48,884 nt of DNA, from positions 1-48,884 of IMG/VR virus record IMGVR_UViG_3300045988_153650; one strand, 5' to 3'. This stretch comes from a virus. The notes below the pieces were generated by a model. The model was not told the DNA's origin and did not search any database. It saw only the letters and a list, made by a program, of their open reading frames with translations. Below are positions 3,122 through 34,885 of this stretch, one piece after another. Each line of letters opens with the position of its first letter. The first letter of the stretch is position 1. Position numbers and translations under genes: made by a program.

Positions 3122-3421
3122 ATGAAAACAGAGCAATTAAAACTTTTAGGAAATATTATAGAGTTTCCTAAGAATCAAAAATTTAAAAATAAAGAGATAC
3201 AAGACAAGTTTTATGTTGCAACAGAACTTCTAAAAAGAATAATAGAACATGGACATGAGTTTAATATAACAGTCACAAGAGATGCAGCATTAGAGGTATT
3301 TGAAGAACGTGATCAAAAAATAAAAGATTTATTAGTCATAAGCACTAGTGAAGAATTTGAAAGAAATCTTGAATATAAAGATAAAAGTTATTTTTATGTA
3401 ATTGGCGATGAATTTAAATAG
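3122..3421 (+). CDS. Hypothetical protein
   Basis: 99-aa ORF with GAGGAG RBS. Confidence 0.6.
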   Translation: MKTEQLKLLGNIIEFPKNQKFKNKEIQDKFYVATELLKRIIEHGHEFNITVTRDAALEVFEERDQKIKDLLVISTSEEFERNLEYKDKSYFYVIGDEFK

Positions 3422-3433
3422 GTGGTGGAGATT

Positions 3434-3610
3434 ATGAATTACCAAAGAATGTGGTTTGCAATGAAAGAATTTTTACTAGATGGGAAAGGCAAAGGTGAAA
3501 TGTTAACGGATGATTTAATCGAAGAAATGTGCAAAATTGAAATATGTGAAAGTAGAGAGTGTAATAAGACTATATTTGATTTAGCTAAGAAGAATCATCT
3601 AAACACTTAG
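3434..3610 (+). CDS. Hypothetical protein
   Basis: Track ORF 3422-3610; ATG 3434 follows GGTGGTGGAG. Confidence 0.55.
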   Translation: MNYQRMWFAMKEFLLDGKGKGEMLTDDLIEEMCKIEICESRECNKTIFDLAKKNHLNT

Positions 3611-3631
3611 ATAATAAAAGGGAGATTTTAA

Positions 3632-3769
3632 ATGGAGGATTTTATGTTAAATTGCTTATTTTTTACAGGCTTGTTTCCACTTTTTGCTTTGTCTTTGTGC
3701 GTTGGGACTGCATTAATAGGAATATTTATAGTATATATTAAAAATATATTCAAACAGATAAAACAATAA
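3632..3769 (+). CDS. Small membrane protein (45 aa)
   Basis: GGGAG RBS; hydrophobic LFFTGLFPLFALSLCVGTALIGIFIVYI. Confidence 0.45.
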   Translation: MEDFMLNCLFFTGLFPLFALSLCVGTALIGIFIVYIKNIFKQIKQ

Positions 3770-3785
3770 TATCTAGGGGGGTATT

Positions 3786-4184
3786 ATGACTAAAGATAAA
3801 TATAAATATGTTGAAGGGTTATTAAGAAATTATAAAAAAAATAAATCAAGAATTAAAATATTAGAGTTAGGGCTAGTTACTGATGATGATTATACACTTG
3901 GGGCTATAGATTATTCAAAAGATAAAATACAAACTTCTAATAAAAGTGATTTATCAGATGCAATAGTTAAAAGAGAAAAAGAATTAGAAAAACTTAAGTA
4001 TGAAGTAAGCCTAACAGATGCACTCTTAGAAAGTCTAAATAATAAAGATAGATATATAATAGAAGCTTTTTATATAGAAAATATTAGAATGAATAAAATA
4101 GCCGTAAAGTTGAATTATTATGAAACTAAAAGCGTGTGGAACAACAAAGATAGAATAATGAATAGCTTAGTAGAGTTAGTGTAG
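3786..4184 (+). CDS. ArpU/RinA-family late-gene transcriptional activator (sigma region-4-like)
   Basis: YVEGLLRNYKKNKSRIKIL N-terminus and C-terminal HTH-like segment; last gene before the terminase operon. Confidence 0.6.
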   Translation: MTKDKYKYVEGLLRNYKKNKSRIKILELGLVTDDDYTLGAIDYSKDKIQTSNKSDLSDAIVKREKELEKLKYEVSLTDALLESLNNKDRYIIEAFYIENIRMNKIAVKLNYYETKSVWNNKDRIMNSLVELV

Positions 4185-4206
4185 GTGTAAAAGCCTACTT
4201 TTTTTA
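4181..4206 (+). terminator. Rho-independent terminator
   Basis: gtaggt/gcctac stem followed by T8. Confidence 0.7.
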
Positions 4207-4384
4207 TTGCCAAAAAAAAACTCAGAAGTATTGAAATTACTACATTCTTACTTTAAAATTGCATTTTATTTACAAATCATATGTAGTATTATATTAACAT
4301 AGATATTTTATGATAATTTCATAATTATTCTTAATCTCCTTATTACTTATATTATTTTTAATATTTTTATTTTGATTTTTTATC

Positions 4385-4414
4385 CTAGCATATCAGTTTA
4401 AATTGATGTGCTAG
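4385..4414. promoter_or_regulatory. Imperfect 11-bp inverted repeat upstream of the packaging operon (candidate late operator or activator site)
   Basis: ctagcatatca-N8-tgatgtgctag, 10 of 11 positions complementary. Confidence 0.4.
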
Positions 4415-4590
4415 TATTAAAACTCAAAGGGGATAATGAGTTGAAGGAGAGAAAAACTAAGGTTAAAACTAAGGTATGGAAAGAAATAGATGAAGTTGTA
4501 AAAGCTACTATTGAAATACCTAAGAGGGTACAATGGCTAGTTGAAGTCATGGAAGAAGTGCCAAAGGGGGAGAGAAGTCTAAGAGATTAG
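4408..4590 (+). CDS. Hypothetical small protein (start uncertain; TTG 4441 after AAAGGGG is an alternative)
   Basis: Track ORF; T-run after an imperfect hairpin downstream. Confidence 0.35.
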   Translation: MLVLKLKGDNELKERKTKVKTKVWKEIDEVVKATIEIPKRVQWLVEVMEEVPKGERSLRD

Positions 4591-4625
4591 GCTTCTTTTT
4601 TTATTTTATTTAAGGAGGTGAAACT

Positions 4626-5042
4626 TTGAGTTTAACCACAAAACAAGAAATATTCGTGCAGAGATTGATTGAAGGCTATTCTCAAAGAGAAGCCTATAAA
4701 TTCGCATATGAAGCTTCTAATATGAAAAATGAAACAATAGATAAAAGGGCTTCCGAATTATTCTCTAAAGGGGAGATTAAGGGAAGGTATGAGGAATTAA
4801 AAAACGAACTCAAACAAAAGATGTTTTATACAGTAGAAAAAGCTAATGATGATTTAGAATGGATTAAATTAAAAGCTAAAGAAGATATAGAATGTCGGGG
4901 AATAAAACAAGCTAATGCAACTACTTATCTAGGGGCAGTAAAACAACAAATAGACTTAAATGGAATTACTATAAAAGAAGCTAAAGAGGATATAGATAAT
5001 GTAATTAAGTTTGAGATAGTTGGTGCTAGAAATGAAAGCTAA
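4626..5042 (+). CDS. terS: Terminase small subunit
   Basis: [26 protein letters not shown] resembles the Terminase_2 N-terminal HTH; TTG start after AAGGAGG; overlaps terL. Confidence 0.75.
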
Positions 5043-6309
5043 AGTAGTAGCTAATAATCATTTTATTGATTTTTTAACTGACTGGAATTATAAATTTTAT
5101 TTTTTAGTCGGAGGATATGGAAGTTCTAAAAGCTATCATGTAGCAGAAAAAATATTATTAAAATTATCTACTGAAAAAAGACTTTGTTTGGTAGTTAGAG
5201 AAGTCTATGACACAATTAGAGATAGTTGTTTTAGTTTATTTGAAGAAGTAGCTAATAACATAGGAATTGGAAGTTATTTAAAATTTAAAACTTCACCCTT
5301 ACAAGTAATATTTCCAAATGGTAGCAAAATCATATTTAAAGGAATGGATAACCCACAAAAGCTAAAATCAATTAATGGTGTATCTATCATATGGCTCGAG
5401 GAATGTTCAGAGGTTAAATATGAAGGATATAAAGAGTTATTAGGTCGTTTAAGACATATGGAAATGAGTAATCACATTATTTGTTCTACTAACCCAGTAA
5501 GTAAAGCTAATTGGACCTATAAACATTTCTTTAAAAATGATGAAGCTAAAACACTTGTATTAGATGATAAAGTCTTGTATGAGAAGAGAATAGTTAAATT
5601 GAACAATACTTACTATCACCATAGCGTGTGTGATGATAATTCATTCTTGCCTAAAAGTTATATAGATGAACTTGAAAATATGAAAGCTTATGATTATGAC
5701 CTATACAGAGTAGCAAGACTAGGACAATTTGGAGTAAATGGAACTAAAGTATTACCACAGTTCAAGGAATTGCCACATGATAAAGTTATGGATTTTGTAA
5801 GCAAATGCCCTTCAAGATATATAAAAACTGGTATGGACTTTGGTTTTGTTACTTCTTATAATGCGATTATTCAAATGGCTATAGATGATAAAAATAAAGA
5901 TTTATACATATTCAAAGAGTATTACTCAAAAGGAAAAACTGATGACGAAATAGCTAAAGACATAGAAGAATTTAAGAAATTTATTATAATAGCTGATAAT
6001 GCCGAGCCTAAGTCAATAGCTTATTTTAATAGATTAGGTTACAAAATGAAAGCTTGTAAAAAGTTTGCAGGAAGTAGACTTGCAAACACAAAGAAGGTAA
6101 AAAGATTTAAAAATATTTACTGTTCAAGTGAATGTATAAATACAATAAAAGAACTTGAAAACCTAACATATAAAACAAATAGATTAGGTGAAATAGTGGA
6201 AGATGAATTTAATATAGATCCACATACATTTAGTGCTATTTGGTATGGTCTAGATGATTATGAGGTTGCAGATATAAAAAGATTTAACAGAGATAAATAT
6301 AACGTATAG
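5032..6309 (+). CDS. terL: Terminase large subunit (PBSX/XtmB-like)
   Basis: Walker A GGYGSSKS, Walker B-like [10 protein letters not shown]-terminal nuclease-size domain. Confidence 0.9.
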
Positions 6310-6319
6310 GAGGTGTATT

Positions 6320-6496
6320 ATGATTTTTAAATTATGCTATTTATTTACTTTTATAACATCAATGATGAATTTATTAGGATTTACTAATCTTGAATGGAAG
6401 CTAATATTTACGCCTTCTGTTTTAGCTTTATTGATAAACGTTGTTATGTTTATAATAGCTTTTATTGTATTTGTATTTTGCGAATACAATAAATAA
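6320..6496 (+). CDS. Small membrane protein (58 aa)
   Basis: AGGAGG RBS; two hydrophobic segments. Confidence 0.45.
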   Translation: MIFKLCYLFTFITSMMNLLGFTNLEWKLIFTPSVLALLINVVMFIIAFIVFVFCEYNK

Positions 6497-6511
6497 GATT
6501 GGAGGTGTACT

Positions 6512-7876
6512 ATGAGAAAAATAAAAATAGATAAAGATTATACTTTAACTAATGATTTAATACTTGATTTAATAGATAAACATTTAACAGAAAAATCGAG
6601 ATTAGAAAAACTTCTAAGATATTACAATAATGAAAATGACAAGATAAGTAATAGAGTATATAAAAATAAAAATAAGCCACAGAATAAGTTATCTCACCCT
6701 TACGCACAGTATATAACAGATACTGCGGTTGGTTATCTATTAGGTAAACCTATAGCTTATGTTACAGAGGATAAAAAGCTTCTTGAAGAACTTACAGATA
6801 TATTTAGGTATAATGATGAAGCTGACAACAATACTACTTTAGCTAAAATGGCTTCTATATATGGTTATGCTTATGAAATAATGTATATAGATAAATTTGC
6901 TAAAGCTAGATTTAAAGCAATTAATCCTAGTGAGTTAATAGTTTGCTATGATAACACTTTAGAAGAAAATATAATATTAGCTATAAGATATTATGATGAA
7001 ATAATTAGAGTTAATGATGAAGATGAAACAATAACTAGATTAGAAATATATACAAAACCTATTGAAAATGACAAAGGGCAAATAGTTAGCAATGGTAAAA
7101 TTATAAGAGGAACTATTGAAGATGGTAATGTAATTTTAACAGATGAAGAAGATTGTTATTTTGATGATATACCAGTGAATGTTTATATAAACAATGATGA
7201 ACTTTACGGAGATTTTGAAAAAGTAATAAGTTTAATAGATGCTTATGACCAAAGTCAGTCGGACACTGCTAATGACTTTGAATTATTTACTAATTGTATG
7301 TTAATAGTAAATGGCGAGTTAATAGATGACGAACAGGCTAAAGACTTAAATGACATAAATTTAATACAGTTTTTAAATTCAGATAGTGATGCAAAATATC
7401 TTATAAAAGATATACAAGATACTGCACTAGAGAATTATAAAAACAGATTAAATGAAGATATACATAGATTTAGCTTTGTACCTAATATGAGTGATACCGA
7501 GTTTTCTTCAAATGCAAGTGGGGTAGCTATGAAATTTAAACTTATGGGGCTTGAAAACTTAGTAGGAGTTAAGGAAAGTAAATTTAAAAAAGGTTTAATG
7601 AGAAGAATAGAGTTGTTATGTGCTTATACTAAAATGAAAAATAATAGCGACTATTCTTATTTAGCTATTGAGCCAGTCTTTACTAGAAATACTCCTAATA
7701 ATGAGTTAGAGTTATCACAAATAATGCAAAACTTAGATGGAATTTTAAGTGAAGAAACTATAATTGGGATGTCGCCTAGAGTTAGTGATATACAAGCAGA
7801 AATAGAGAAAAAAGAAAATGAAAGTAATAAGCTTTATGAGGACAATTATTCTGAATTAGGTGATATGAATGTATAA
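6512..7876 (+). CDS. Portal protein (SPP1 gp6-like)
   Basis: 454 aa directly after terL; family-like composition; GGAGG RBS. Confidence 0.85.
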   Translation: MRKIKIDKDYTLTNDLILDLIDKHLTEKSRLEKLLRYYNNENDKISNRVYKNKNKPQNKLSHPYAQYITDTAVGYLLGKPIAYVTEDKKLLEELTDIFRYNDEADNNTTLAKMASIYGYAYEIMYIDKFAKARFKAINPSELIVCYDNTLEENIILAIRYYDEIIRVNDEDETITRLEIYTKPIENDKGQIVSNGKIIRGTIEDGNVILTDEEDCYFDDIPVNVYINNDELYGDFEKVISLIDAYDQSQSDTANDFELFTNCMLIVNGELIDDEQAKDLNDINLIQFLNSDSDAKYLIKDIQDTALENYKNRLNEDIHRFSFVPNMSDTEFSSNASGVAMKFKLMGLENLVGVKESKFKKGLMRRIELLCAYTKMKNNSDYSYLAIEPVFTRNTPNNELELSQIMQNLDGILSEETIIGMSPRVSDIQAEIEKKENESNKLYEDNYSELGDMNV

Positions 7877-8765
7877 GTTATATAATGGGGACTGCTTAGA
7901 GGTAATGAAGGATATTCCTGATAATAGTATAGATATTGTTATAACAGACATACCATATGGAATAGATTTTTCAGAGTGGGATGTGCTACATAATAATACT
8001 AATTCTGCATTAGGTGGTGCGAGTGAACATCAAGCTAAGAACACTTCATTTAAAAGAAGGGGTAAGCCTATTAATGGATGGTCAAAGGCAGATAAGCAAA
8101 TATCATATGAGTACCAAGAATGGTGTAATAAATGGTCTAAAGAATTATTTAGAATAACAAAAGAAGCAAGTCCTATACTTATTTTTAGCAGTAGAAGATT
8201 TCAGCATAGAGTATGTAACGCTCTTGAAGATAATGGATTTATGATAAGAGATATACTTATATGGCAAAAAGATAAATGCAATGCTAAGGCACAGAGGATA
8301 AATAATGTATTACACAGAAGAGGCATATATGAAGAATGTTATGATAATTATAGAGTTGGTAATTTAGCTCCATATTATGAACCAATTATATTTGCAATGA
8401 AACCATACAGACACACATTAACAGATAGAATATTAGAAGATAAGATAGGTGGACTATATTGCAAAGACGATAAGATACCATCAAATATATTATATTGCCC
8501 TGCAAATAAAAGAAATAAGTATCATGAAACGGAGAAGCCAGTTGAGCTGATAGAAATGTTGATAGATATATTTTCAATATATGAAAATCATACTATTTTA
8601 GATTTTACTATGGGAAGTGGCTCAACAGGCGTTGCCTGTATGAATACTAATAGAAAATTTATAGGTATAGAACTTGATAATAATTATTTTAATATAGCTT
8701 CTAAAAGAATTGAGGAGGCTTTTTTTAATGCGCAAAATAAAGAAGGTACTATGAATGAAGAATAA
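7869..8765 (+). CDS. DNA methyltransferase, beta-class (N6-adenine or N4-cytosine)
   Basis: Motif IV DIPYG near the N-terminus and motif I FTMGSGSTG near the C-terminus. Confidence 0.85.
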   Translation: MYKLYNGDCLEVMKDIPDNSIDIVITDIPYGIDFSEWDVLHNNTNSALGGASEHQAKNTSFKRRGKPINGWSKADKQISYEYQEWCNKWSKELFRITKEASPILIFSSRRFQHRVCNALEDNGFMIRDILIWQKDKCNAKAQRINNVLHRRGIYEECYDNYRVGNLAPYYEPIIFAMKPYRHTLTDRILEDKIGGLYCKDDKIPSNILYCPANKRNKYHETEKPVELIEMLIDIFSIYENHTILDFTMGSGSTGVACMNTNRKFIGIELDNNYFNIASKRIEEAFFNAQNKEGTMNEE

Positions 8766-9648
8766 TTTATCTAGTAAAGAATATTGGACCAAAAGAGAAG
8801 CCTATAAACTTAAGAAAGGCTTAAAAGATTTAAAAAAAATAGAAAAAGAATTAGTTAATGAATATAAAAAAGCTATGAATGAGATAGGTAAAGAAATTAG
8901 TAATTTATTTTATAAATATGCTAAAGATAACAACCTGTCTTATTCTGATGCAAAAAAATATTTAAACAGTAGCGAATTTAGAGAATTTAAAAGAGATTTA
9001 AAATCTTATATGAAACTTATAGAAGAAACAGGTGATGAAGAGCTTTTACTAGAGTTAAACACTTTATCAATGAAAAGTCGTATATCAAGGTTAGAAGAAA
9101 TGTTTTATCAGTGCAGTAAATATATCAATGAAGTATATGAAAGCACCAATAAAAAGCTTCAAATAGCTTATAGTAGTACAATAAAAGATAACTATTACCA
9201 AACTATATATGATATACATAAAGCTATAGGAGTTGGTGCTAGTTTTTCATATATTGATAATGATATGATAAAAGAAATATTAGCTTTTCCTTGGAGTGGT
9301 AGGCATTATAGTCAAAGGTTATGGTCCAACAGAACTAAATTAAAAAATGCTATGGTTGAGGAACTCACTCAAATGCTTATACAAGGGAAAGGTGTAAAAG
9401 AAACTTCTAAAGCATTATCTAAGAGATTAGATGCAGATTTTAAAAATTGTATTAGGCTTATACATACAGAACATAGTTATTTTATGGAAATCGCATCACA
9501 AAAGGCTTATGAGGAATGTGATGTAACTAAATATAAAATACTTGCGACATTAGATAAACGTACAAGTGAAATATGTCAAAGGTTAGATGGGGAGGGGTTT
9601 AATGTTAAGGATGCAATAGTTGGTGTAAATATGCCTCCTTTTCATTGA
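8755..9648 (+). CDS. Head morphogenesis protein (SPP1 gp7 / Mu F-like), ends at an in-frame TGA
   Basis: Position after portal; ends ...GVNMPPFH then TGA inside the family PPxHxxCR motif. Confidence 0.85.
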   Translation: MKNNLSSKEYWTKREAYKLKKGLKDLKKIEKELVNEYKKAMNEIGKEISNLFYKYAKDNNLSYSDAKKYLNSSEFREFKRDLKSYMKLIEETGDEELLLELNTLSMKSRISRLEEMFYQCSKYINEVYESTNKKLQIAYSSTIKDNYYQTIYDIHKAIGVGASFSYIDNDMIKEILAFPWSGRHYSQRLWSNRTKLKNAMVEELTQMLIQGKGVKETSKALSKRLDADFKNCIRLIHTEHSYFMEIASQKAYEECDVTKYKILATLDKRTSEICQRLDGEGFNVKDAIVGVNMPPFH

Positions 9649-25926: not shown

Positions 25927-26061
25927 ATGGTAACTTATTTAGCTATGCAAATATTAAAAGGGAAAATATCTTATGCTCAAACAATAGAAAAATTCCCACA
26001 GTATAAAGAGGATATAGACTTAATATTAATAACAGAGGGGAGAGAGGACTTAATAAAATAA
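25927..26061 (+). CDS. Small protein (44 aa, XkdX position)
   Basis: GGTGGTG RBS; synteny. Confidence 0.4.
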   Translation: MVTYLAMQILKGKISYAQTIEKFPQYKEDIDLILITEGREDLIK

Positions 26062-26078
26062 GTTCTTTTTTTATTATG

Positions 26079-26110
26079 GCTAGGGAATTAATTTCTCTAG
26101 CTTTATTTTT
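26079..26110 (+). terminator. Rho-independent terminator
   Basis: gctagggaa/ttctctagc stem (one G-U) followed by tttattttt. Confidence 0.65.
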
Positions 26111-26131
26111 ATTTTAAGGGTGGTGTATTGA

Positions 26132-26410
26132 GTGGAACAAATGATAAGTAACTTAGGTTTTCCTGTTGCTTGTGTATGTGCTTTAGGTGTTTATTTTGTG
26201 CAAAAGGATAAAGCTTCAAGAGAAGATATAAATAAAATCATAGACAATTTAAGAGAAGATAATAAACTAGATAGGGAACTATACAGAGATACAATAGATA
26301 AATTCGATAGTAAATTAGATAAATTTGCTATTGCATTAGAAAATAACAATAATGAGTTAGGGGCAATAAAAGAAGATATAAGAAATATAAAAGAGAAGGT
26401 AGGTGTATAG
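26132..26410 (+). CDS. BhlA/UviB-family holin-like protein
   Basis: N-terminal TM GFPVACVCALGVYFV then a charged coiled coil; directly upstream of the endolysin. Confidence 0.6.
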   Translation: MEQMISNLGFPVACVCALGVYFVQKDKASREDINKIIDNLREDNKLDRELYRDTIDKFDSKLDKFAIALENNNNELGAIKEDIRNIKEKVGV

Positions 26411-26411
26411 A

Positions 26412-27086
26412 ATGAGAGTATTAGTAAGCGCAGGACACACTTTGAATGGAGTTGGAAGTGGTGCAGTTGGTTTTATAAATGAAAGTCAAGAAAATAGAGT
26501 ATTAGCTAAATTCATAGTTGAACATCTTAAAAAACTAGGTCATGAAGCAGATTATCATGAAGTAAATAGTGGAAGTGATTATATAGAGAAACAAGCTAAA
26601 AAAGCTAATTCTAAAAATTATGATTTAGTTGTTCAAATACACTTTAATAGTTCAGATAATGCAGCTGCTAATGGTACAGAAGTAATATACAGAAGTAGTA
26701 AAGGAAAAGTATTTGCTCAAAAAGTTCAAGATAAGTTAAAAACTGAATTTAAAGATAGGAAAATAAAGCATGATATAAATGATTTAAAGCGTGATTTAGG
26801 TTGGTTAAGATTAACTAAATCCCCTGCAATATTAATAGAAACTTGCTTTGTGTCTAATAAAAGTGATACTGATAAATATACATCTAATAGGAAAAAGATA
26901 GCTAAATTAATAGCAGAAGGTATAGCAAATCAAACTATAGTTGAAAATAGTAATTCTAGTGCTTCATCTACTGATAAAAAACTATATGCAGTTTGTGTAA
27001 CTGCTTGTGAATATGATTCAGCTAAAAAAATGCAAGAAGAACTAATAAGTAAAGGCTACAAAGATACATACTTAATTCCTAGATAA
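26412..27086 (+). CDS. Endolysin, N-acetylmuramoyl-L-alanine amidase (Amidase_3) with SPOR-like C-terminus
   Basis: VSAGHTLNG...ESQENR...VQIHFNS...NGTEVIY; C-terminal YAVCVTACEYDSAKKMQEELISKGY. Confidence 0.85.
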   Translation: MRVLVSAGHTLNGVGSGAVGFINESQENRVLAKFIVEHLKKLGHEADYHEVNSGSDYIEKQAKKANSKNYDLVVQIHFNSSDNAAANGTEVIYRSSKGKVFAQKVQDKLKTEFKDRKIKHDINDLKRDLGWLRLTKSPAILIETCFVSNKSDTDKYTSNRKKIAKLIAEGIANQTIVENSNSSASSTDKKLYAVCVTACEYDSAKKMQEELISKGYKDTYLIPR

Positions 27087-27088
27087 TG

Positions 27089-27117
27089 TTTATTTTATTG
27101 TTAAAATATGGTATAAT
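27089..27117 (+). promoter_or_regulatory. Candidate extended -10 promoter (TGgTATAAT)
   Basis: tatggtataat at 27107-27117; weak -35. Confidence 0.4.
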
Positions 27118-27219
27118 ATAATAAAAACTAATGATAGTTTTTTAAAAATAACATTACACAAAGTAAGAATATATTATCTTTATTTTAATCTTGTATTTTT
27201 TATGTTTTTTATTTTTAAA

Positions 27220-27241
27220 GTTTTGTAATTGTTTTGTAATT
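27220..27241. repeat. Tandem 11-bp repeat GTTTTGTAATT x2
   Basis: Read directly. Confidence 0.8.
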
Positions 27242-27252
27242 TTAGTTAGAAA

Positions 27253-27285
27253 AAAGCTATTGTTTTGTTGCGATAGCTTTTTTTA
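27253..27285. terminator. Bidirectional-type terminator hairpin
   Basis: aaagctat-N12-atagcttt flanked by an A-run and a T-run. Confidence 0.65.
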
Positions 27286-27408
27286 CTTGCTACAATATAA
27301 ATATATCCAACTTTAATTTGCAATACTCGAGTTGTAGAGTATAAATTCAACAGTTAATCGGCTAAAGATTTCAATATCAACAAACAACCATATAAATTCA
27401 GTAAAAAG

Positions 27409-27439
27409 GGAAGCTATGGGGATTTGGGCTTCTTTTTTT
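27409..27439 (+). terminator. Rho-independent terminator
   Basis: ggaagc...gcttct stem followed by T7. Confidence 0.5.
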
Positions 27440-27753
27440 ATGTTTGAAATTAGGCAAATAAAAAAGACTGCTTAAAAGCAATCTTCTTTATTGACGATAT
27501 AATTAATAATAAAAGAAAGGAGATACTAAAACATAGCTAAATTTTAGTACATATATATAATTCTATAAATACGATTAAATTCCTTCATGTTCAATAAAAT
27601 ATTGACAAATTTTATTATAAAAAAGTATAATTAATTTGTACAATAAGTTTATAATTATTGTCTAGATTTTTGAAATTCCACAAGAAATCATTACATCCAA
27701 ACAAAATTAAATTCCTATATTTTAATGGCTTATACTTTTCTGTATAGGCTATT

Positions 27754-27927
27754 TTAGTTTGACTTGCATACGCAACATCTATCATATTCAAATCTTTGAT
27801 GCTTACCACAAGATCTACAATATTGGAAATTATTATTATAACTACTATGACTATAAAAATTGTCTTGGTGATTTCTTTCCCAGTATGAGCCTTTTTCTTC
27901 CTTATCTTGATTAAATATATTAAACAT
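27754..27927 (-). CDS. Small zinc-ribbon-like protein (57 aa)
   Basis: CRSCGK...CCVCK; ATG after GGTGG; competes with the overlapping 119-aa track ORF. Confidence 0.4.
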   Translation of the reverse strand: MFNIFNQDKEEKGSYWERNHQDNFYSHSSYNNNFQYCRSCGKHQRFEYDRCCVCKSN

Positions 27928-28020
27928 ATAACCGACCACCCTTTAAAATCTAATTTAAAAGGTATTATGGGCATATCTGAATATATTTATACATTAAAAT
28001 GTTTAAATAAAATGATATTT

Positions 28021-28182
28021 TTATTCATATATTTTATCTAATATATCTTCACATATTAAATCACATATTTCTCCTGCTCTTTCTTGTAGTTCATGTTCAG
28101 ATACTAATTTACCAATTTCATCTTCCCATCTTATACAAACATAGCCTTCACTATCTAATAAAATCTTACCTAAAACTTCCAT
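28021..28182 (-). CDS. Hypothetical acidic protein (53 aa)
   Basis: Internal ATG preceded by GGAGGAAGG; the longer track ORF overlaps the upstream gene. Confidence 0.5.
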   Translation of the reverse strand: MEVLGKILLDSEGYVCIRWEDEIGKLVSEHELQERAGEICDLICEDILDKIYE

Positions 28183-28207
28183 ACCTTCCTCCAATAAAAG
28201 AATTATT

Positions 28208-28525
28208 TTATTCAATTTCCCTATGGATTTCAAATTCCTCATAAACACTCCAATGATATTGTCTATCCTCATTATTTTCAATGCCCTTTTCATTGCAACC
28301 ATATAAGACCATATATTCTTTTTTAATACCTTTATATATAAAATATCTAATTTGGTTATTTAATTTATCTTTTATAATATCTCCATATTGGAAGGGAAGT
28401 TTTTGAAATATTGTATCATCAATATATTCTTGGTACTCTTCTTGTATCGGTCTTATTTCTTCATCCCTTAATCTTTTAAATTTATAAATTTCATTGCAAA
28501 GTTCATCTTTATCTAATTTGCACAT
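28208..28525 (-). CDS. Hypothetical protein (105 aa)
   Basis: AGGAGG RBS. Confidence 0.65.
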   Translation of the reverse strand: MCKLDKDELCNEIYKFKRLRDEEIRPIQEEYQEYIDDTIFQKLPFQYGDIIKDKLNNQIRYFIYKGIKKEYMVLYGCNEKGIENNEDRQYHWSVYEEFEIHREIE

Positions 28526-28562
28526 ACCTTCAACCTCCTTATTAAATAAAAATTATATTTCA

Positions 28563-28703
28563 CTAAAAACACATACTTTTACATTTACAGCTATAACAAT
28601 TATGACCTTCTTGATTGTCACAATGACATTCTTTTTCTTTATCCGCATCCATACCACATTGTACATAACAACACTTACCACACTCTGTATTCACTATATC
28701 CAT
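28563..28703 (-). CDS. Cys-rich mini-protein (46 aa, 10 Cys)
   Basis: MDIVNTECGKCCYVQCGMDADKEKECHCDNQEGHNCYSCKCKSMCF; AAAGGAG RBS. Confidence 0.55.
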   Translation of the reverse strand: MDIVNTECGKCCYVQCGMDADKEKECHCDNQEGHNCYSCKCKSMCF

Positions 28704-28736
28704 TACATTCTCCTTTCTGAATAAAACTATTTTATG

Positions 28737-28913
28737 TTATTTACTTCTCTTATCTTCAAAACTAAATGGATTTATTACTTTCCACCTTGAAATGTGTTCG
28801 TCTGTATCTAAACATCTTTGTTGACAACCACATTCACAATTTACGTCAAGCCCTTTTTTGAGTTCTTTTATAGCTATTATTTTCTTGCAATTTAAACATT
28901 GTATCTTTTCCAT
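28737..28913 (-). CDS. Zinc-ribbon mini-protein (58 aa)
   Basis: CLNC...CECGC..C; AGGAGG RBS. Confidence 0.55.
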   Translation of the reverse strand: MEKIQCLNCKKIIAIKELKKGLDVNCECGCQQRCLDTDEHISRWKVINPFSFEDKRSK

Positions 28914-28990
28914 ATTTCTTTATTTCCTCCTTAAATCTAATATAAATTTCATAAGTTCGCTTCCTTTAAAATTTTGATTTTGTTTATATT

Positions 28991-29119
28991 TCATTTACAA
29001 TTATTCTTGCACTTCCAAGCTGTATGCCAAGCATCAAAGAATCCGAAGAGTCCGCCAGTTTTTATAAATCCTACAAACCTCAAACTACTTCCACACTTAC
29101 TACATCTTTCTTTCCACAT
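28991..29119 (-). CDS. Mini-protein (42 aa)
   Basis: CSKCG...CKNNC; AGGAG RBS. Confidence 0.45.
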   Translation of the reverse strand: MWKERCSKCGSSLRFVGFIKTGGLFGFFDAWHTAWKCKNNCK

Positions 29120-29151
29120 AATATCTCCTAAAATCTAAATAAAAGAATTAT

Positions 29152-29328
29152 TTATTCATAATTTATTCTTTTTAAATAATCTTCAATTTTCTCATATCCC
29201 CTACAAGAATCTCTATAAGTATTAATTATCATGGTATCACATCTTTTACACACTAGGACTGGTGCTCCATTAATTTTTACATCTTCATTATGAATACAAG
29301 TTGTATCATCACATAATATTTTTTTCAT
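29152..29328 (-). CDS. Zinc-ribbon mini-protein (58 aa)
   Basis: CDDTTC...CKRC; AAGGAGAAAG RBS. Confidence 0.55.
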   Translation of the reverse strand: MKKILCDDTTCIHNEDVKINGAPVLVCKRCDTMIINTYRDSCRGYEKIEDYLKRINYE

Positions 29329-29349
29329 CTCTTTCTCCTTAAATAAAAA

Positions 29350-29526
29350 TTATATTTTATCTTTCTCAATAACTATCTTTCCTTCTGATTCAGTTATTTT
29401 TATTTGTCTATCTTCTATGCTAATACCTAACGTTTCAATAACCCAACTTGGCAAACTTAATTTGTAAATGTAAGAGTTTGGTCTATCTTTAACCTTCTGT
29501 ATGCTTATATTTCTAATTGTTTCCAT
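29350..29526 (-). CDS. AbrB/MazE/SpoVT-type swapped-hairpin DNA-binding protein (58 aa)
   Basis: YIYKLSLPSWVIETLGISIEDRQIKITESEGKIVIEK pattern; AGGAGGGA RBS. Confidence 0.6.
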   Translation of the reverse strand: METIRNISIQKVKDRPNSYIYKLSLPSWVIETLGISIEDRQIKITESEGKIVIEKDKI

Positions 29527-29580
29527 AGTCCCTCCTATCTAATCAGTAAAGGCTTTTTATAGTGAGCCACCACTTTTGTA

Positions 29581-29742
29581 TTAAACTCTTTCTATTCTTG
29601 TTATAGTCCATTCTTTATTTTGATTATCCCATTGTTCAAAATTTTCTCTAGCTTCTTCTTTAGTGTTACAAGTTACTGTGCAGTTGAATTCTTCCCCAAC
29701 TTTATTTCCTCTTTTTCTGTAATAAACATTGTATTCTCTCAT
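29581..29742 (-). CDS. Hypothetical protein (53 aa)
   Basis: AGGAAGG RBS; first gene after the 29.8-kb promoter. Confidence 0.5.
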   Translation of the reverse strand: MREYNVYYRKRGNKVGEEFNCTVTCNTKEEARENFEQWDNQNKEWTITRIERV

Positions 29743-29786
29743 TCTTAATACCTTCCTTTTCTCTTTTATTTAACTTCCTTAATTAT

Positions 29787-29815
29787 ATTATATCTCGTTA
29801 GTACCTAACTGTCAA
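29787..29815 (-). promoter_or_regulatory. Consensus sigma-A promoter TTGACA-17-TATAAT with operator GTTAGGTACTAAC in the spacer
   Basis: Minus strand reads ttgaca gttaggtactaacgaga tataat. Confidence 0.75.
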
Positions 29816-29838
29816 TACTTATATTATTGTTTTTATTT

Positions 29839-30318
29839 CTATATTGCATTTATATCGTTTAAATGTTGCTCAAAGCTTAAGTGATTAGCATAAACTTCTT
29901 TTATAGCTTCTATTCTTCTGTTAAGTCTTTTAAGTTCTTTTTCTTCTTCTTTTTTGAATATAGCTTGTAATTCACTATTTGTTTCTACTCTTGCATCTTT
30001 AGTTGCTCCAAGTTTTTTATTTGCTTTTCTGTCAGCTATGTATATATATCTATTTATTAAAAAACAATTACTTGAATGTCTGTTATTAACTAATATTTCT
30101 TTTCCGTTCATTATTAAAGTTTTTACTGTTCTTCCTTCTCCCATTTCAACTTTAACATCTGTTCCTCTACTTGTTCTATATTCTATCATTTTATTTTCTC
30201 CTTTTCTTATTAGAGAATGTGCTAATGATAATGCTAATCTGAAAGTTGCTTTATAGCTATCACCTTTTCTTATTATTTTTTTAGTTATTTCATGTGCTTT
30301 CTTCATAACATTTCTCAT
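29839..30318 (-). CDS. Hypothetical protein (159 aa)
   Basis: AGGAGG RBS 8 nt upstream; MKKAHEITKKIIRKGDSYKATFRLALSLAHS N-terminus resembles proteins common on Firmicutes mobile elements. Confidence 0.7.
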   Translation of the reverse strand: MRNVMKKAHEITKKIIRKGDSYKATFRLALSLAHSLIRKGENKMIEYRTSRGTDVKVEMGEGRTVKTLIMNGKEILVNNRHSSNCFLINRYIYIADRKANKKLGATKDARVETNSELQAIFKKEEEKELKRLNRRIEAIKEVYANHLSFEQHLNDINAI

Positions 30319-30355
30319 TTTTATATCCTCCTTATTTATTAATTATTATACTTTA

Positions 30356-30384
30356 ATTATATGTTAGTAACTAACAAAAGTCAA
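30356..30384 (-). promoter_or_regulatory. Near-consensus promoter TTGACT-17-TATAAT with operator GTTAGTTACTAAC in the spacer
   Basis: Minus strand reads ttgact tttgttagttactaaca tataat. Confidence 0.75.
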
Positions 30385-30407
30385 CTATATTTATAAACTT
30401 TTTTTAA

Positions 30408-30539
30408 TTATTCTTCTATTACTATTGCAATTATTTCTTTGTTTTGGTCAATTATAACTTTTTTACCTTCTACTAAATGCCATTTCCAATAGTTTGGTAC
30501 TTCTATTATTTTATCATTTTCAAGTAATTTTATTTTCAT
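30408..30539 (-). CDS. Hypothetical protein (43 aa)
   Basis: AAAGGAGAA RBS; first leftward ORF next to the origin region. Confidence 0.45.
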   Translation of the reverse strand: MKIKLLENDKIIEVPNYWKWHLVEGKKVIIDQNKEIIAIVIEE

Positions 30540-30616
30540 ATTTTCTCCTTTGTGGTATGAGTTGCTTAACTCTACTAGGTTCTTGTAAAATTATTCCAAT
30601 TATATTGTATATGAGT

Positions 30617-30643
30617 TTATCCACAATATCCACATAATCCACA
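30617..30643 (+). promoter_or_regulatory. Three head-to-tail DnaA-box-like 9-mers (TTATCCACA, ATATCCACA, TAATCCACA)
   Basis: The first matches the consensus TTATNCACA exactly; the other two have one mismatch each. Confidence 0.7.
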
Positions 30644-30684
30644 AATATTGTTTATAGCTTAAACCGTTGAAAATACTGCACACG

Positions 30685-30790
30685 TTCCGTGGAATTGACG
30701 GTATAAGTGAAAATATAATACCCACACATTCCGTGGAATTGACGGGGTACATTCCGTGGAATTGACGGGGTACATTCCGTGGAATTGAAC
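30685..30790 (+). repeat. Four direct iterons TTCCGTGGAATTGA(C/A) (30685, 30729, 30752, 30775); the last three are phased at exactly 23 bp
   Basis: Read directly; located in the divergent intergenic region. Confidence 0.9.
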
Positions 30791-30799
30791 AAAGATAGA

Positions 30800-30868
30800 T
30801 AAGTTATTATAGTGAAGTTATTATAGATATATATATATATAATAAAAAAATAACTTTTAATAAAAAAC
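30800..30868. other. AT-rich tract with (AT)7 and A-runs (candidate DNA unwinding element)
   Basis: agatatatatatatatataataaaaaaataacttttaataaaaaac. Confidence 0.5.
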
Positions 30869-30869
30869 A

Positions 30870-30898
30870 TTTACATATTTTATTTGATAGTGTATAAT
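30870..30898 (+). promoter_or_regulatory. Promoter TTTACA-17-TATAAT driving the Rep-like ORFs
   Basis: tttaca tattttatttgatagtg tataat. Confidence 0.65.
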
Positions 30899-30928
30899 AA
30901 TATTAACAAACAAATAAGGAGGTTAAAA

Positions 30929-31264
30929 ATGAATATCAATTTTGAAATGGCTATAAGTAATAATATTGATGTAAAAGATATAACTCTTATAAGTTACTTA
31001 TCTTTAATATCAGAAAAAGAAAAATTAGGTGAAGAATTTGAGTTTGCATATAGTAGAATAATAAATGATTTGTCTATAATATTTAACAGTAAAAGTTATG
31101 AAGCTAATTCTGTTAAACTTAGAAGAATGTTAGATAAAGAAGGTATGAAGAAATTTATAACAAGGGAAATCTTAAAAAAGGGTAGAGAATTTGGAACTGT
31201 TGTTTTATTTAAGCTTAATAAATCAAATATAGAGAAACTTAATGTAAAAGGAATAGTAAAGTAA
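30929..31264 (+). CDS. Putative winged-helix DNA-binding protein (111 aa)
   Basis: ATG after AAGGAGG; the track TTG start at 30884 is unlikely. Confidence 0.6.
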   Translation: MNINFEMAISNNIDVKDITLISYLSLISEKEKLGEEFEFAYSRIINDLSIIFNSKSYEANSVKLRRMLDKEGMKKFITREILKKGREFGTVVLFKLNKSNIEKLNVKGIVK

Positions 31265-31281
31265 TAAAGGGGGATAACTAA

Positions 31282-32166
31282 ATGAAATATATACACGGTT
31301 TTTTAAGTAGCAGATTGAAAGAGGAAAAAATAAGCCATGATGAAAGCTTAGTTATAAGATATTTATTAAACTTTATAAATAGTAACAAGATGGAAAAGGT
31401 GCTTGTAAATGGTGAATTTTATTATTGGGTAAAATATGAAAAAGTAGCTACAGATTTAGAAATATTAGGAGTTAAAAAACAAGCTATAAGCGATATGTTA
31501 ATTTATGATTTAGGAGAAAAACCAAGTGATTGGGAAGAAAGGCTTAACTCAATGAAAGAAAGTAGCAGAAAGAAAAAGATGAAATCTAAATTTATAGGAA
31601 TATTTAAAAGATATACTAAAAAAGATGCAGAAGGCACTAAATCTTATTTTGCCCCTACTGAAAAATTATATTCACTTCTTCCAAGCATAACGGAAGATGA
31701 TGAAGATATGAAAAATAAAAAAGCCCCTACTTTGCCACAAGTAGAAGCCGAAGAAATCAAACCTAATAAAAGTATATGCAATTCTGATATAAATAATACT
31801 TCATTTGATGAAAAAAATCAATGTAAAAAAGTAGAAAGTGAAGTAGTGAAAATTATAAATAAAAGTTGTGTAAATATTAGAAAGCAAGATTTAAAAGATT
31901 GTGAAGAAGAATTTACTGATATAGATAAATTAAAAGAAGCTTTAAGTATATGCGAGAAAAATAATTCTCATGGTATTAAATCATTAAGAATGGCTTATAA
32001 GTACGGGAATAGAAATAATGATAATGTGATTAAAAAACAAGGAACTTTATTTATGGCCGATAGTAAAGTTATTGTAGATGGAAAATTAAAAAGTGTATCT
32101 GATATGACAGATGAAGAAATTGAGCAAAAGATTCGAGAAAAATGGGGAAGAAACTTTGTAGGTTAA
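31282..32166 (+). CDS. Putative plasmid-type replication initiator (RepA_N-like N-terminus)
   Basis: ISHDESLVIRYLLNFINSNKMEKVLVNGEFYYWVKYEKVATDLEILGVKKQAISDML resembles the RepA_N pattern; adjacent to the iterons. Confidence 0.5.
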   Translation: MKYIHGFLSSRLKEEKISHDESLVIRYLLNFINSNKMEKVLVNGEFYYWVKYEKVATDLEILGVKKQAISDMLIYDLGEKPSDWEERLNSMKESSRKKKMKSKFIGIFKRYTKKDAEGTKSYFAPTEKLYSLLPSITEDDEDMKNKKAPTLPQVEAEEIKPNKSICNSDINNTSFDEKNQCKKVESEVVKIINKSCVNIRKQDLKDCEEEFTDIDKLKEALSICEKNNSHGIKSLRMAYKYGNRNNDNVIKKQGTLFMADSKVIVDGKLKSVSDMTDEEIEQKIREKWGRNFVG

Positions 32167-32193
32167 TTTGATAACTAAAGGAGATATTTAAAT

Positions 32194-32640
32194 ATGGAAA
32201 ATTTTATAAATGAATTTAAAACTTATTGCGAAACAGTAGAAAATACAACTGCACTTGAAAAGATTAAGCAACATTACTTTGATTATATGCTTGATCTTGA
32301 AACTTTTGTAGATGATCACATTGAAATAAATTTATCTAAAGCTAGTAACAAAGATATTATAGATGAAGCTAATAGACTAAGTGTGATTTTGAAATCTTTA
32401 ATTAAAACTGCTAGTTGTATAAATAATATTGATGCTAGAGATGTTTACTTATTATTTTACGAAGATAGTAAATTCCATATAAAAGAAGTATTTGATGAAG
32501 TTATGCAATCTTGTTATTCACAACTATATAAAAAAGTATATCCAAATGAAATAGATTTATATAAGTATGAGCTAGAAGAAAGTGATTTGCCTAAATGGTA
32601 CATTGATTTATGCAATATATTAGATAAGTACGGCATATAA
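32194..32640 (+). CDS. Hypothetical protein
   Basis: 148-aa ORF with AAGGAG RBS. Confidence 0.65.
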   Translation: MENFINEFKTYCETVENTTALEKIKQHYFDYMLDLETFVDDHIEINLSKASNKDIIDEANRLSVILKSLIKTASCINNIDARDVYLLFYEDSKFHIKEVFDEVMQSCYSQLYKKVYPNEIDLYKYELEESDLPKWYIDLCNILDKYGI

Positions 32641-32734
32641 TAAAAACGAATTTAAAAGGCATTGAGAGAGGTTTTAAGCTTCTCTTGATGTAAATATAAC
32701 AAGGGATAAAATATCAAAATAAGAGGGGATAAAA

Positions 32735-33316
32735 TTGAATACGGAAGCTAAAAGAACAAGGAAAAAATGGACTAAAGAAGAAGATAATTTTCTAGTTGAG
32801 AATTGGGGAAAAATTAAAATAGATAATTTATGTAAAAGACTAGGTAGGACTAAAAGAGCAGTAGAAGAAAGAGCATATAACACTTTAAGATTAGGGCATC
32901 AAGCTCAATGGTACACTTTATTAGAAATTCAACATATAACTGGGATAAACAAAGATACTATAAGGAAAAGAATTGTTAAGACTAATTTTAAGTGTATGAG
33001 AGCAAGAACTAAGCAAAAGCCTTATATGCTTGATGAAGTTCAACTTAAAAAGTTTCTAAAAGAAAATCAAGATTTATGGCATACAAAAAATCTAACTATA
33101 AATATTTTTAGCAATGAAAAATGGTATTTAGAAAAAGTTGAAGCTGATAAGTTTAAGACTAATAAATACAATAAAGCTTGGTCAGAGTATGAAGATAATA
33201 TAATGCTTGATAGATTGAGTAGGGGATTTACTTATGAAGATATAGCTAAGGAACTTAACAGAACTACAGAAGGTGTCTTTGGTAGGCATAAATATAAATA
33301 CAGATTAAAATTATAG
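32735..33316 (+). CDS. Protein with two Myb/SANT-like (RsfA-like) HTH domains
   Basis: KKWTKEEDNFLVENWG...GRTKRAVEERA and KAWSEYEDNIMLDRLSRG...NRTTEGVFGRHKY; TTG start after GAGGGG. Confidence 0.5.
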   Translation: MNTEAKRTRKKWTKEEDNFLVENWGKIKIDNLCKRLGRTKRAVEERAYNTLRLGHQAQWYTLLEIQHITGINKDTIRKRIVKTNFKCMRARTKQKPYMLDEVQLKKFLKENQDLWHTKNLTINIFSNEKWYLEKVEADKFKTNKYNKAWSEYEDNIMLDRLSRGFTYEDIAKELNRTTEGVFGRHKYKYRLKL

Positions 33317-33614: not shown

Positions 33615-34760
33615 GTGATAAAAATAAAGGGTTTTACAATAAGATTATATCCAACTAAAGAACAAGAAGAACTAATGCGAAAGCATATAGGTTGTCAGAG
33701 ATATGTTTATAATTGGGCATTAGCTTTAAATAATGAATTATACAAACAAGAAGGTAAAAAGTATAGTGCAACTGAATTAGGAAAAATACTAACTCAATAT
33801 AAAAAAGAGGTAAAATGGCTTAATGAAGTTTCAAATGCTACATTGAAAGAAGCTATTAGAAATTTAGATAAGGCTTATACTAATTTTTATAAGAAAAAAG
33901 CTAAACTACCTAAATTTAAAAGTAAGAAAACACATAATAATACTTTTTATAGTAGATATGACAAAATAAAATTCTATGAAAATGATACTGTAAACTTAGA
34001 AAAAATAGGTAAGGTTGAATGTAAATCAAGTTATGATATAGATTTTACTAATGTAGCTAAATTCTCTAATCCTAATGTTACTTTTAATGGTAGATGTTGG
34101 GTACTTACATTTAGTATAGATATTGAAAATGAGTATATTGAATTAACTGATAAAGTGTTAGGAATAGATTTAGGAATTAAGCAGTTAGCAATAGTTAACG
34201 AGGAAGGTCTAGATATACCTAATATCAATAAAACTAAAAAAGTTATAGATTTAGAAAAGAAATTAAAGAGATTGCAAAGACAATGTTCAAGAAAATATGA
34301 AAATAATAAGATAGGGGGATATTACCAAAAAACTAAGAACATTGCAAAACTTGAATTAAAGATTAAAAAACTTCATAGAAAACTTAAAAATATTAGATTA
34401 AATCATATTCATCAAGCTACTACTAAGATAGTGAAAATCAAACCGTCTATGATAGTAATGGAGGATTTGAAAGTATCTAATATGATGAAAAATAGACATT
34501 TAGCTAAATCAATTCAACAACAAGGTTTTTACACATTCATAGAACAAATGAGATATAAATGTGAATGGAATGGTATTAAATTCGTTCAAGTTCCAACATT
34601 TTATCCTTCAAGTAAAATGTGTAGTTGTTGTGGCAATATCAAAAAAGATTTAAAGCTATCAGATAGAGTTTATAAATGTGATAATTGTAATTCTATATTT
34701 GATAGAGATAAAAATGCTAGTCAAAATTTAGTTAATTATGGGTTAGAAATATCACTTTAA
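33615..34760 (+). CDS. tnpB: TnpB (IS200/IS605-family OrfB, RuvC-like RNA-guided nuclease)
   Basis: FTIRLYPTKEQ N-terminus; RuvC D (GIDLGIK), E (VMEDLKV), D (FDRDKNAS); zinc finger CSCCGN...CDNCNS. Confidence 0.9.
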   Translation: MIKIKGFTIRLYPTKEQEELMRKHIGCQRYVYNWALALNNELYKQEGKKYSATELGKILTQYKKEVKWLNEVSNATLKEAIRNLDKAYTNFYKKKAKLPKFKSKKTHNNTFYSRYDKIKFYENDTVNLEKIGKVECKSSYDIDFTNVAKFSNPNVTFNGRCWVLTFSIDIENEYIELTDKVLGIDLGIKQLAIVNEEGLDIPNINKTKKVIDLEKKLKRLQRQCSRKYENNKIGGYYQKTKNIAKLELKIKKLHRKLKNIRLNHIHQATTKIVKIKPSMIVMEDLKVSNMMKNRHLAKSIQQQGFYTFIEQMRYKCEWNGIKFVQVPTFYPSSKMCSCCGNIKKDLKLSDRVYKCDNCNSIFDRDKNASQNLVNYGLEISL

Positions 34761-34885
34761 AGATATTCTAATTTGGGTATTCGTTACAACCCACACCAAT
34801 AGGTACAAAGTCTATGGAGTGTTATATCAAACGAAAGTAGCTAAGGCGAAATCGGACACTGTGAAGTAGAAAAGAAACGAAAATC
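34700..34885 (+). ncRNA. Candidate TnpB omega RNA (reRNA) scaffold; boundaries approximate
   Basis: Locally GC-richer, stem-rich noncoding tail right after the tnpB stop (gggtattcgttacaacccacaccaataggtac...ggagtgt...gacactgtgaag). Confidence 0.45.

Follow-up and report, generated by a model that had tools for sequence, protein, structure and literature searches.

A leftward mini-gene operon of an integrase-less phage with a dyad shared by its two promoters and AbrB58 as its probable repressor

The 48,884-base stretch of viral DNA analysed here (IMG/VR record IMGVR_UViG_3300045988_153650, hereafter the window) is an entire contig within a 3.1-Mb genome of 30% GC, and it carries a block of small leftward genes at 27754-30539. 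This block is probably an accessory mini-gene operon of a circular, integrase-less Clostridium-type phage, and comparison with related loci suggests that it most likely represses its own transcription through AbrB58, the 58-aa product of one of its genes (29350-29526, minus strand). The feature is real and non-random; the kind of circuit is ordinary, the predicted repressor fold is unusual, and the operator family is sharply defined. In the literature that we searched, no description of such an operon was found.

Two promoters with a common spacer dyad

A promoter scan of the whole window returned only four sites matching at least 11 of the 12 consensus positions, all within 27602-30898: P1, P2, a rightward early promoter (30870-30898, plus strand) and a convergent promoter on the plus strand at 27602. 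P1 (TTGACA-17-TATAAT, 29815-29787, 12/12) and P2 (TTGACT-17-TATAAT, 30384-30356, 11/12) are the sole minus-strand sites of this quality. The spacer of each contains one exact copy of the dyad GTTAG-N3-CTAAC, namely GTTAGGTACTAAC at 29797-29809 (spacer positions 1-13) in P1 and GTTAGTTACTAAC at 30363-30375 (spacer positions 4-16) in P2. These are the only exact copies in the window, where approximately 0.03 would be expected, and two or more dyads were found in none of 300 shuffles of its sequence. A preliminary description of this DNA had reported the two consensus promoters and their common dyad, and both were borne out by these scans.

Because the dyad begins at spacer position 1 in P1 and at position 4 in P2, duplication of one promoter does not simply account for it; having two registers relative to the hexamers, it is an element of its own. 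Its half-sites are 8 bp apart, centre to centre, a spacing that would fit beta-sheet or loop readers better than helix-turn-helix (HTH) dimers. Neither the rightward early promoter at 30870-30898 nor any other promoter of the window has the dyad, which points to a local circuit rather than a phage master switch. Copies with up to two mismatches are not enriched in the window (15 versus 23 expected), and none of them sits at another promoter. One two-mismatch near-copy, GTTAGGTATTAGC (minus strand, 29419-29431), falls within the AbrB58 coding sequence, probably by chance. The 3.1-Mb host genome contains three further copies, none in a promoter context; thus, as judged from its sequence, the host does not seem to use the dyad and would have no regulon based on it.

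Protein-guided and pattern-guided searches of gut metagenomes and IMG/VR gave about 20 related loci, whose promoters were called from the hexamers alone, independently of the dyad. The relatives share a layout: the lysis genes point one way, a convergent operon of small genes comes next, and beyond it lie an origin-like region and early genes, which vary in type. All of their operon-strand promoters with at least 11/12 matches hold the dyad; each operon contains one to three copies of it. Among the ten distinct spacers of the P1 type, none of the ten arm positions is variable, compared with five of the seven other positions (Fisher p = 0.003); the corresponding figures for the distinct P2-type spacers are 0/10 and 4/7 (Fisher p = 0.015), and since the spacer sequences are related, both tests overstate independence. 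The P2-type promoters of L005, L006, L130, L131, L143, L145, L162 and L176 keep the arms around the centres TTA, GTA, TAA and TGT, and across all relatives the centres are GTA, TTA, GCA and TAA, with TGT in the most divergent member. Invariant arms combined with a varying centre and varying flanks are the footprint that would be expected of a protein-read dyad. Consequently, the earlier proposal that the promoters are repressible gains comparative support from the arms in about 20 related phages, and it is to that extent that we retain it.

The cassettes formed by promoter and dyad also appear to recombine. The single-promoter operons (L005, L068, L127, L138, L142, L152, L156, L159 and L160) join a P2-type upstream flank to a P1-type downstream flank, and such hybrid promoters point to recombination within the promoter-operator cassettes. 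One locus, L130, contains three promoter-operator cassettes and two AbrB-like copies.

A loose promoter-plus-dyad pattern was also run against IMG/VR and was set aside, its matches being mostly chance. A stricter 21-base pattern recovered the family and, in addition, unrelated contigs of higher GC content, in which no AbrB-like gene follows the promoter. In these metagenomic contigs (L034/L144/L148, L146/L147/L149/L155 and L135), consensus promoters carry a GTTAG-N3-CTAAC spacer with the centres AGG, CCC and CAA, and L135 has a second copy of the dyad at about +15.

AbrB58 as candidate reader of the dyad

In the 15 operon variants that were compared, two genes are always present, AbrB58 and the terminal gene z57, and in L131, L138 and L162 the promoter is followed directly by AbrB58. 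Three other proteins were considered as readers of the dyad and rejected. Distant phages that have z57 and lack AbrB58 also lack the dyad, which speaks against z57. Against the 43-aa product of g43 speak L131 and L162, which keep the dyad without this gene. The Myb/HTH protein encoded at 32735-33316 is only 28-44% identical in relatives whose dyad arms are identical; moreover, the replication and early modules beside the operon have been swapped for unrelated types in relatives while the dyad is unchanged. The preliminary description had named as possible repressor either the AbrB-like protein or another phage HTH protein, and the divergence of the Myb/HTH protein disfavours the second. The first remains the best candidate because of its predicted AbrB/MazE fold, its presence in 15/15 variants, the loss of the dyad where AbrB58 is missing, and the spacer palindromes that its homologues have of their own. 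On this comparative evidence, AbrB58 most likely reads the dyad.

The distant homologues seem to provide the most independent evidence for this assignment. In Clostridioides difficile phage phiCDKH01 (MN718463), the unit containing the AbrB-like gene starts with TTGACT-17-TATAAT, whose spacer holds the palindrome TCACGT-C-ACGTGA. In two prophage-like loci of other genomes, the promoter just upstream of the AbrB-like gene has the spacer palindromes TTGGT-T-ACCAA (L164) and TATTCGT-T-ACGAATA (L165). With the perfect copy of the window, GTTAGT-T-ACTAAC, these share a common build, in which a single base separates the two arms and the centre reads GT-N-AC. In a set of 740 promoter-like sites from the host genome, palindromes with a one-base gap and arms of at least 5 bases were found in 3.1%, and a GT-N-AC centre in none.

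The AbrB/MazE-type signature that had been noticed at 29350-29526 is supported by predicted topology, fold matches and transitive links to PF04014. The AlphaFold2 (AF2) model of AbrB58, built with 32 homologues, has the beta-beta-alpha-beta-beta topology of the AbrB/MazE/SpoVT superfamily, with strands at residues 8-11, 19-22, 42-47 and 50-55 and a helix at 27-33, and the protein ends directly after the last strand of the domain. The ten best fold matches of the model in the PDB are all AbrB, MazE, C56 or C68, with SpoVT and VapB lower; matches in BFVD include proteins labelled SpoVT/AbrB and SymE. Seven residues are invariant in the 32 homologues (R5, N6, Q10, K11, R15, P16 and N17) and make up a polar, basic N-terminal segment. 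Further genomes of the same bacterial family yielded weaker relatives in a search with the AbrB58 profile, and those open reading frames (ORFs) match PF04014, two of them above its cut-off (25.9 and 26.3 bits versus 24.7). In the phage GenBank collection, the sole match of AbrB58 was in phiCDKH01 (E = 0.4), later confirmed by hhalign, in which the AbrB58 profile aligned with phiCDKH01_07 at 96.6% probability and E = 5e-10; phiCDKH01_07 itself scores 23.9 bits on PF04014. We consider the assignment of AbrB58 to the AbrB/MazE/SpoVT fold (PF04014, clan CL0132), as predicted from the model, to be well supported but not proven. In PHROGs, AbrB58 matches PHROG 2329 only, of unknown function, and NCBIfam gave nothing direct. 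A search of the family profile against PDB sequences returned no AbrB match; its best match there, small heat-shock proteins, was judged a chance resemblance.

Several observations weigh against a self-repressing operon governed by an AbrB-fold protein. The AF2 model has a mean predicted local distance difference test score (pLDDT) of 69, i.e., moderate confidence, its PDB fold matches are weak (E-values of 0.07-2, template modelling scores of 0.4-0.5), and AbrB58 has no direct Pfam match at E <= 0.1. A viral protein 98% identical to AbrB58 is labelled 'Toxin SymE' in BFVD, an automatic label. AbrB58 is 69-100% identical in the close relatives, so that a single ancestry, and not function, may explain why it is found together with the dyad. 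For a divergent homologue (P0075, in L179-L181), the contig extends 1.5 kb upstream and shows no dyad promoter there, which makes it a possible exception to the co-occurrence. Finally, no cargo protein of the operon matches a known anti-defence, defence or takeover family. The P0075 gene sits after a gene of 228 aa.

Three other explanations were considered. In one of them, a plasmid-like prophage is stabilised by the operon acting as a toxin-antitoxin or addiction module, with AbrB58 as MazE-type antitoxin and autorepressor or as SymE-like toxin, z57 or a cargo peptide as its partner, and a convergent small RNA that acts on the 3' end of the transcript as type I antitoxin. The predicted AbrB/MazE fold and the SymE label would suit such a module, as would the phage being a separate circular contig without integrase, the adjacency of AbrB58 and z57 in minimal operons, the AbrB-like genes of phiCDKH01 coming after small hydrophobic peptides, and the conserved convergent promoter and terminator overlapping the 3' end, as in type I systems of Firmicutes. 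Nevertheless, we consider this explanation unlikely. AbrB58 consists of the 58-aa DNA-binding domain alone, without the C-terminal tail that neutralises a toxin, and no conserved toxin adjoins it as in MazEF or VapBC: its downstream neighbour varies, and up to seven unrelated genes separate it from z57, which is itself found without AbrB58 and is hydrophilic, without a membrane helix. No known toxin family was matched in Pfam, PHROGs, NCBIfam or PADLOC. As for a type I SymE/SymR pair, AbrB58 does not match the SymE_toxin family (PF08845), to which phiCDKH01_07 has just a weak match (15.6 bits versus a cut-off of 29), and the 5' end of AbrB58 has no antisense promoter, as no plus-strand promoter-like site occurs in 29300-29600.

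It has also to be asked whether the dyad is a true operator read by another factor, either a protein of the rightward early region or a host regulator. The role of AbrB58 would then be unrelated, and the operon would be a classic immediate-early unit that a later phage product silences. A later phage protein commonly shuts off early promoters, e.g., p4 of phi29, and the Myb/HTH regulator is present in most relatives. The divergence of this regulator beside identical arms, the swapping of the adjoining modules with the dyad unchanged, the lack of a host-genome regulon with the dyad, and the palindromes of the same build that three other AbrB-like lineages have in their spacers make this reading improbable. 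A dyad with no regulatory role, kept by recent common descent or as a homology patch for the recombination of cassettes in front of constitutive moron promoters, would agree with the closeness of the relatives (approximately 90-97% DNA identity around the promoters), with the recombination inside the cassette that the hybrid P2/P1 promoters indicate, and with the precedent of PeSL cassettes in T4-type phages (PMC2839356). This is very improbable given that variation is located in the centre and flanks and never in the ten arm positions, that the dyad is retained in two registers, and that distant AbrB-like genes have palindromes of the same build and different sequence, a build found at 0/740 control sites.

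Proposed circuit and comparable systems

With AbrB58 as the probable reader, the circuit would operate as follows. P2 and P1, near-consensus sigma-A promoters with optimal spacing, would need no activator and would fire upon DNA entry. A dimer of AbrB58 would bind the 13-bp dyad between the -35 and -10 hexamers and exclude RNA polymerase. As the repressor would be made from the promoters that it blocks, an early burst of expression would be followed by repression to a low, self-limited level. The repeated promoter-operator cassettes would double as recombination points for the gain and loss of cargo, while z57 and a convergent small transcript would close the operon as an older, separable module. 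The sequence comparisons establish the anatomy of the operon, its conservation and the co-occurrence patterns and support the fold assignment; binding, repression, timing and cargo function we infer. A role of AbrB58 as master lysogeny repressor was rejected, since the dyad is on no other promoter; likewise, the region does not resemble a CI/Cro-type switch, because the dyad is absent from the divergent promoter and the contig has neither integrase nor resolvase.

The closest parallels appear to be the operons of anti-CRISPR (Acr) and anti-CRISPR-associated (Aca) genes. Aca2 represses a strong promoter with N17 spacing through inverted repeats, and it does so also from a prophage (PMC6765145). 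Like the AcrIF8-Aca2 operon of Pectobacterium phage ZF40 (PMC6765145), the present operon has a strong promoter with a perfect -10, 17-nt spacing and an inverted repeat inside. By analogy, a small conserved regulator would act locally in one operon with variable small genes, and repression would be expected after the early burst and in the carried state. The regulator differs in its predicted AbrB/MazE swapped-hairpin fold, which is neither HTH nor ribbon-helix-helix (RHH); one 13-bp dyad inside the spacer makes up the whole operator, and the regulator gene comes first or midway in the operon, not last. Aca proteins bind an inverted repeat in the strong promoter of their own operon; here such a repeat is present and conserved, and its binding by AbrB58 is predicted. 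The operon has no HTH- or RHH-type regulator in this role and no known anti-CRISPR gene. Since no cargo gene is a known Acr, membership of the Aca proteins cannot be claimed. The RHH-type Aca14 was recently added to the HTH families of Aca proteins and shows that non-HTH folds are in use; AbrB-type regulators go unmentioned in that paper (PMC13551039).

In archaeal viruses, a shared strong promoter with regulatory sequences marks anti-defence genes (PMC11065993). The SIRV2/Aca8 system described there resembles the present one in that one promoter with its motif is repeated before small, poorly conserved genes and also precedes the gene of the repressor. It differs in its archaeal BRE (B recognition element)/TATA promoters, its winged-helix Aca8, and its genes, which lie at the genome termini and are mostly transcribed singly. 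In T4-type phages, PeSL cassettes (PMC2839356, PMC4122927) also have repeated strong early promoters flanking small ORFans in a hypervariable region, where hybrids show recombination; however, PeSL denotes a promoter with a terminator stem-loop, whereas here the palindrome is located in the promoter spacer and is operator-like, not a terminator.

With regard to the regulator, the predicted topology, the small size and the transitive links to PF04014 liken AbrB58 to the N-terminal domain of Bacillus subtilis AbrB, to Escherichia coli MazE, and to C68 and C56 of the Sulfolobus elements pSSVx and pSSVi. Proteins of the MazE type bind palindromes in the promoter of their own gene and thereby repress it. 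In contrast to the known DNA binders of the AbrB/MazE/SpoVT group, AbrB58 has no direct Pfam match, C-terminal domain, toxin-binding tail or partner toxin. Additionally, AbrB has no strict consensus site, whereas this operon has a sharply defined dyad.

Another comparable locus is that of genes 07-11 of C. difficile phage phiCDKH01 (MN718463), in which gene 07 has been listed as a putative regulator (PMC8270841). Besides encoding the homologous AbrB-like protein, this locus occupies the same site between lysis genes and lysogeny/early region, converges on the endolysin gene, and has an 11/12 promoter with a 6-1-6 palindrome in a 17-nt spacer. The differences are the sequence of the palindrome (TCACGT-C-ACGTGA), an integrase, a cargo of small hydrophobic peptides, and two AbrB-like copies. 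These copies, genes 07 and 10 (record positions 4644-6059 for the locus), each come after a 42-aa peptide, encoded by genes 09 and 11, with a charged N-terminus and a hydrophobic tail; gene 08 encodes a 55-aa membrane peptide. The TCACGT-C-ACGTGA spacer precedes gene 11, and TACG-N3-CGTA precedes gene 09. The peptide and AbrB-like genes may be pairs of a small toxin and a regulator.

If AbrB58 is the repressor, the DNA-binding folds that phages use in self-limiting circuits of early accessory genes, HTH and RHH, would gain a third. We tentatively regard it as possible that phages of Clostridia have an unrecognised class of Aca-like local autorepressors made up of small AbrB-fold proteins, with lineage-specific, GT-N-AC-centred spacer palindromes, and that a pool of tiny counter-defence or takeover genes common to unrelated phages is both controlled and reshuffled by means of their portable cassettes. 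Should this hold, the motif could be used as bait for new anti-defence genes in Clostridial phages, in which almost no anti-defence or accessory genes are known. A consensus promoter with a spacer palindrome beside an AbrB-like mini-gene is a signature that could locate accessory or anti-defence islands in these phages. The operon also shows how a region that normally holds the lysogeny module in temperate phages is arranged in an integrase-less, possibly plasmid-like phage.

Cargo genes, operon end and genomic surroundings

The block had been described as packed minus-strand ORFs of 42-159 aa with ribosome-binding sites (RBS), several of them zinc-ribbon or Cys-rich. Eleven such ORFs with Shine-Dalgarno sequences were confirmed, of which five are CxxC or Cys-rich (29152-29328, 28991-29119, 28737-28913, 28563-28703 and 27754-27927), and a terminator scan covering 26000-33000 found none within the block. 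Upstream of P2, g43 (30408-30539, RBS AAGGAG) is 90-98% identical in the ten of the 15 related operons that have it. Between P2 and P1 lies g159 (29839-30318), present in five of the 15 variants; the promoter comparison implies that it has been gained or lost by recombination within the promoter-operator cassette. The 159-aa g159 protein has two modules: library matches span residues 1-55 or 44-158, each as a free-standing protein. A strong internal RBS and an in-frame ATG at codon 44 (30189) lie exactly at the module junction, so that a shorter product of 116 aa may also be made. This protein has weak matches only, to PHROG 12732 and to Gp111 of Pfam, and no tblastn match in the phage GenBank collection. 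Repeated weak matches of its residues 10-70 to giant ankyrin-repeat proteins were judged uninformative.

The first gene after P1 is g53 (29581-29742), whose 53-aa product is found in four of the 15 variants and has no family match in PHROGs, Pfam or NCBIfam. AbrB58 follows, and after it come the variable cargo genes c58a (29152-29328), c42 (28991-29119) and c58b (28737-28913), all CxxC or Cys-rich, c46 (28563-28703), whose product has 11 Cys, g105 (28208-28525) and g53b (28021-28182), each with an RBS. Over the 15 variants, 26 cargo families were counted, most of them seen once or a few times; they are located both before and after AbrB58 and are replaced by other small genes between variants. 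No informative match to the cargo proteins was found in Pfam, PHROGs, NCBIfam or PADLOC. The cargo probably consists of host-takeover, anti-defence or exclusion factors, and these 26 or more families, some of them common to a 101-kb phage, are candidates for screens of toxicity and defence inhibition. In that unrelated phage, represented by the 101-kb IMG/VR contig L007, c58a, c42, c46 and g105 recur at 98-100% identity in a small-gene array. The array (2647-9435) comprises about 50 small genes on the same strand, has no strong promoter or dyad, and shares c58a, c42, c46 (twice), g105 and another cargo family at 91-100% identity.

The operon ends with z57 (27754-27927), the conserved 57-aa terminal gene. 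Its product has a disordered N-terminal half with the invariant motif HQDNF...YNNNFQ, followed by a CxxC-x10-CxxC zinc ribbon whose four Cys are invariant in 84 homologue clusters. Confidence in its AF2 model is limited to the C-terminal hairpin, and the fold matches are generic zinc ribbons with E-values above 2.

Opposite to z57, the convergent promoter (TTGACA-18-TATAAT, 27602-27631, plus strand, 12/12), which the preliminary description had passed over, is followed by a highly conserved sequence of about 125 nt at 27638-27764. A terminator hairpin at 27724-27753 abuts the z57 stop codon and has a T-run on the plus strand only; in relatives, its stem is kept and its loop varies. A consensus promoter at this position is kept in most relatives and missing in L068 and L156. 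The segment 27638-27764 folds at -22.6 kcal/mol (z = -3.0 versus shuffles) and is a candidate convergent small RNA that would belong with z57 and be antisense to any read-through of the operon. Rfam gave nothing in 27-31 kb, even at E <= 1. Anti-Shine-Dalgarno pairing of this RNA with the z57 leader was considered and dropped, as only about 4 nt pair by eye. In ENA metagenome contigs of more distant phages (L169-L173), z57 adjoins the endolysin gene and has the convergent promoter and terminator, without AbrB58 or dyad; thus, z57 and its convergent transcript look like an older, separable module. A bidirectional terminator at 27446-27476, a hairpin flanked by an A-run and a T-run and conserved in relatives, is the likely end of leftward transcripts that pass the z57 hairpin.

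The ends of the contig share a 119-bp overlap, so the contig is considered circular, and the phage genome is approximately 48.77 kb, circular or circularly permuted. According to PHROG scans, terminase, head, tail, holin and endolysin genes are on the plus strand, the last ending at 27086, and from 30.9 kb the plus strand encodes the Myb/HTH regulator, TnpB, an FtsK-like ATPase, Erf, an initiator and a primase-helicase. Searches for tyrosine and serine recombinases found none on the phage contig, versus 6 and 9 elsewhere in the genome, in agreement with the integrase having been noted earlier as missing. Negative GC skew is confined to the leftward block and occurs in no other stretch of the window. 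The region has no near match in the phage GenBank collection. Repeats of 23 bp are present in 30617-30898. On the plus strand, a non-coding segment after the endolysin terminator (27260-27440) is near-identical in four phages, conserved above its flanking genes, and holds a promoter-like site (TTGCAA-16-TATAAA) and a terminator at its end. Further to the right, a RAGATH-18 RNA (Rfam RF03064, 70.9 bits) is located at 34811-34872 (plus strand), immediately 3' of the TnpB-like gene at 33615-34760.

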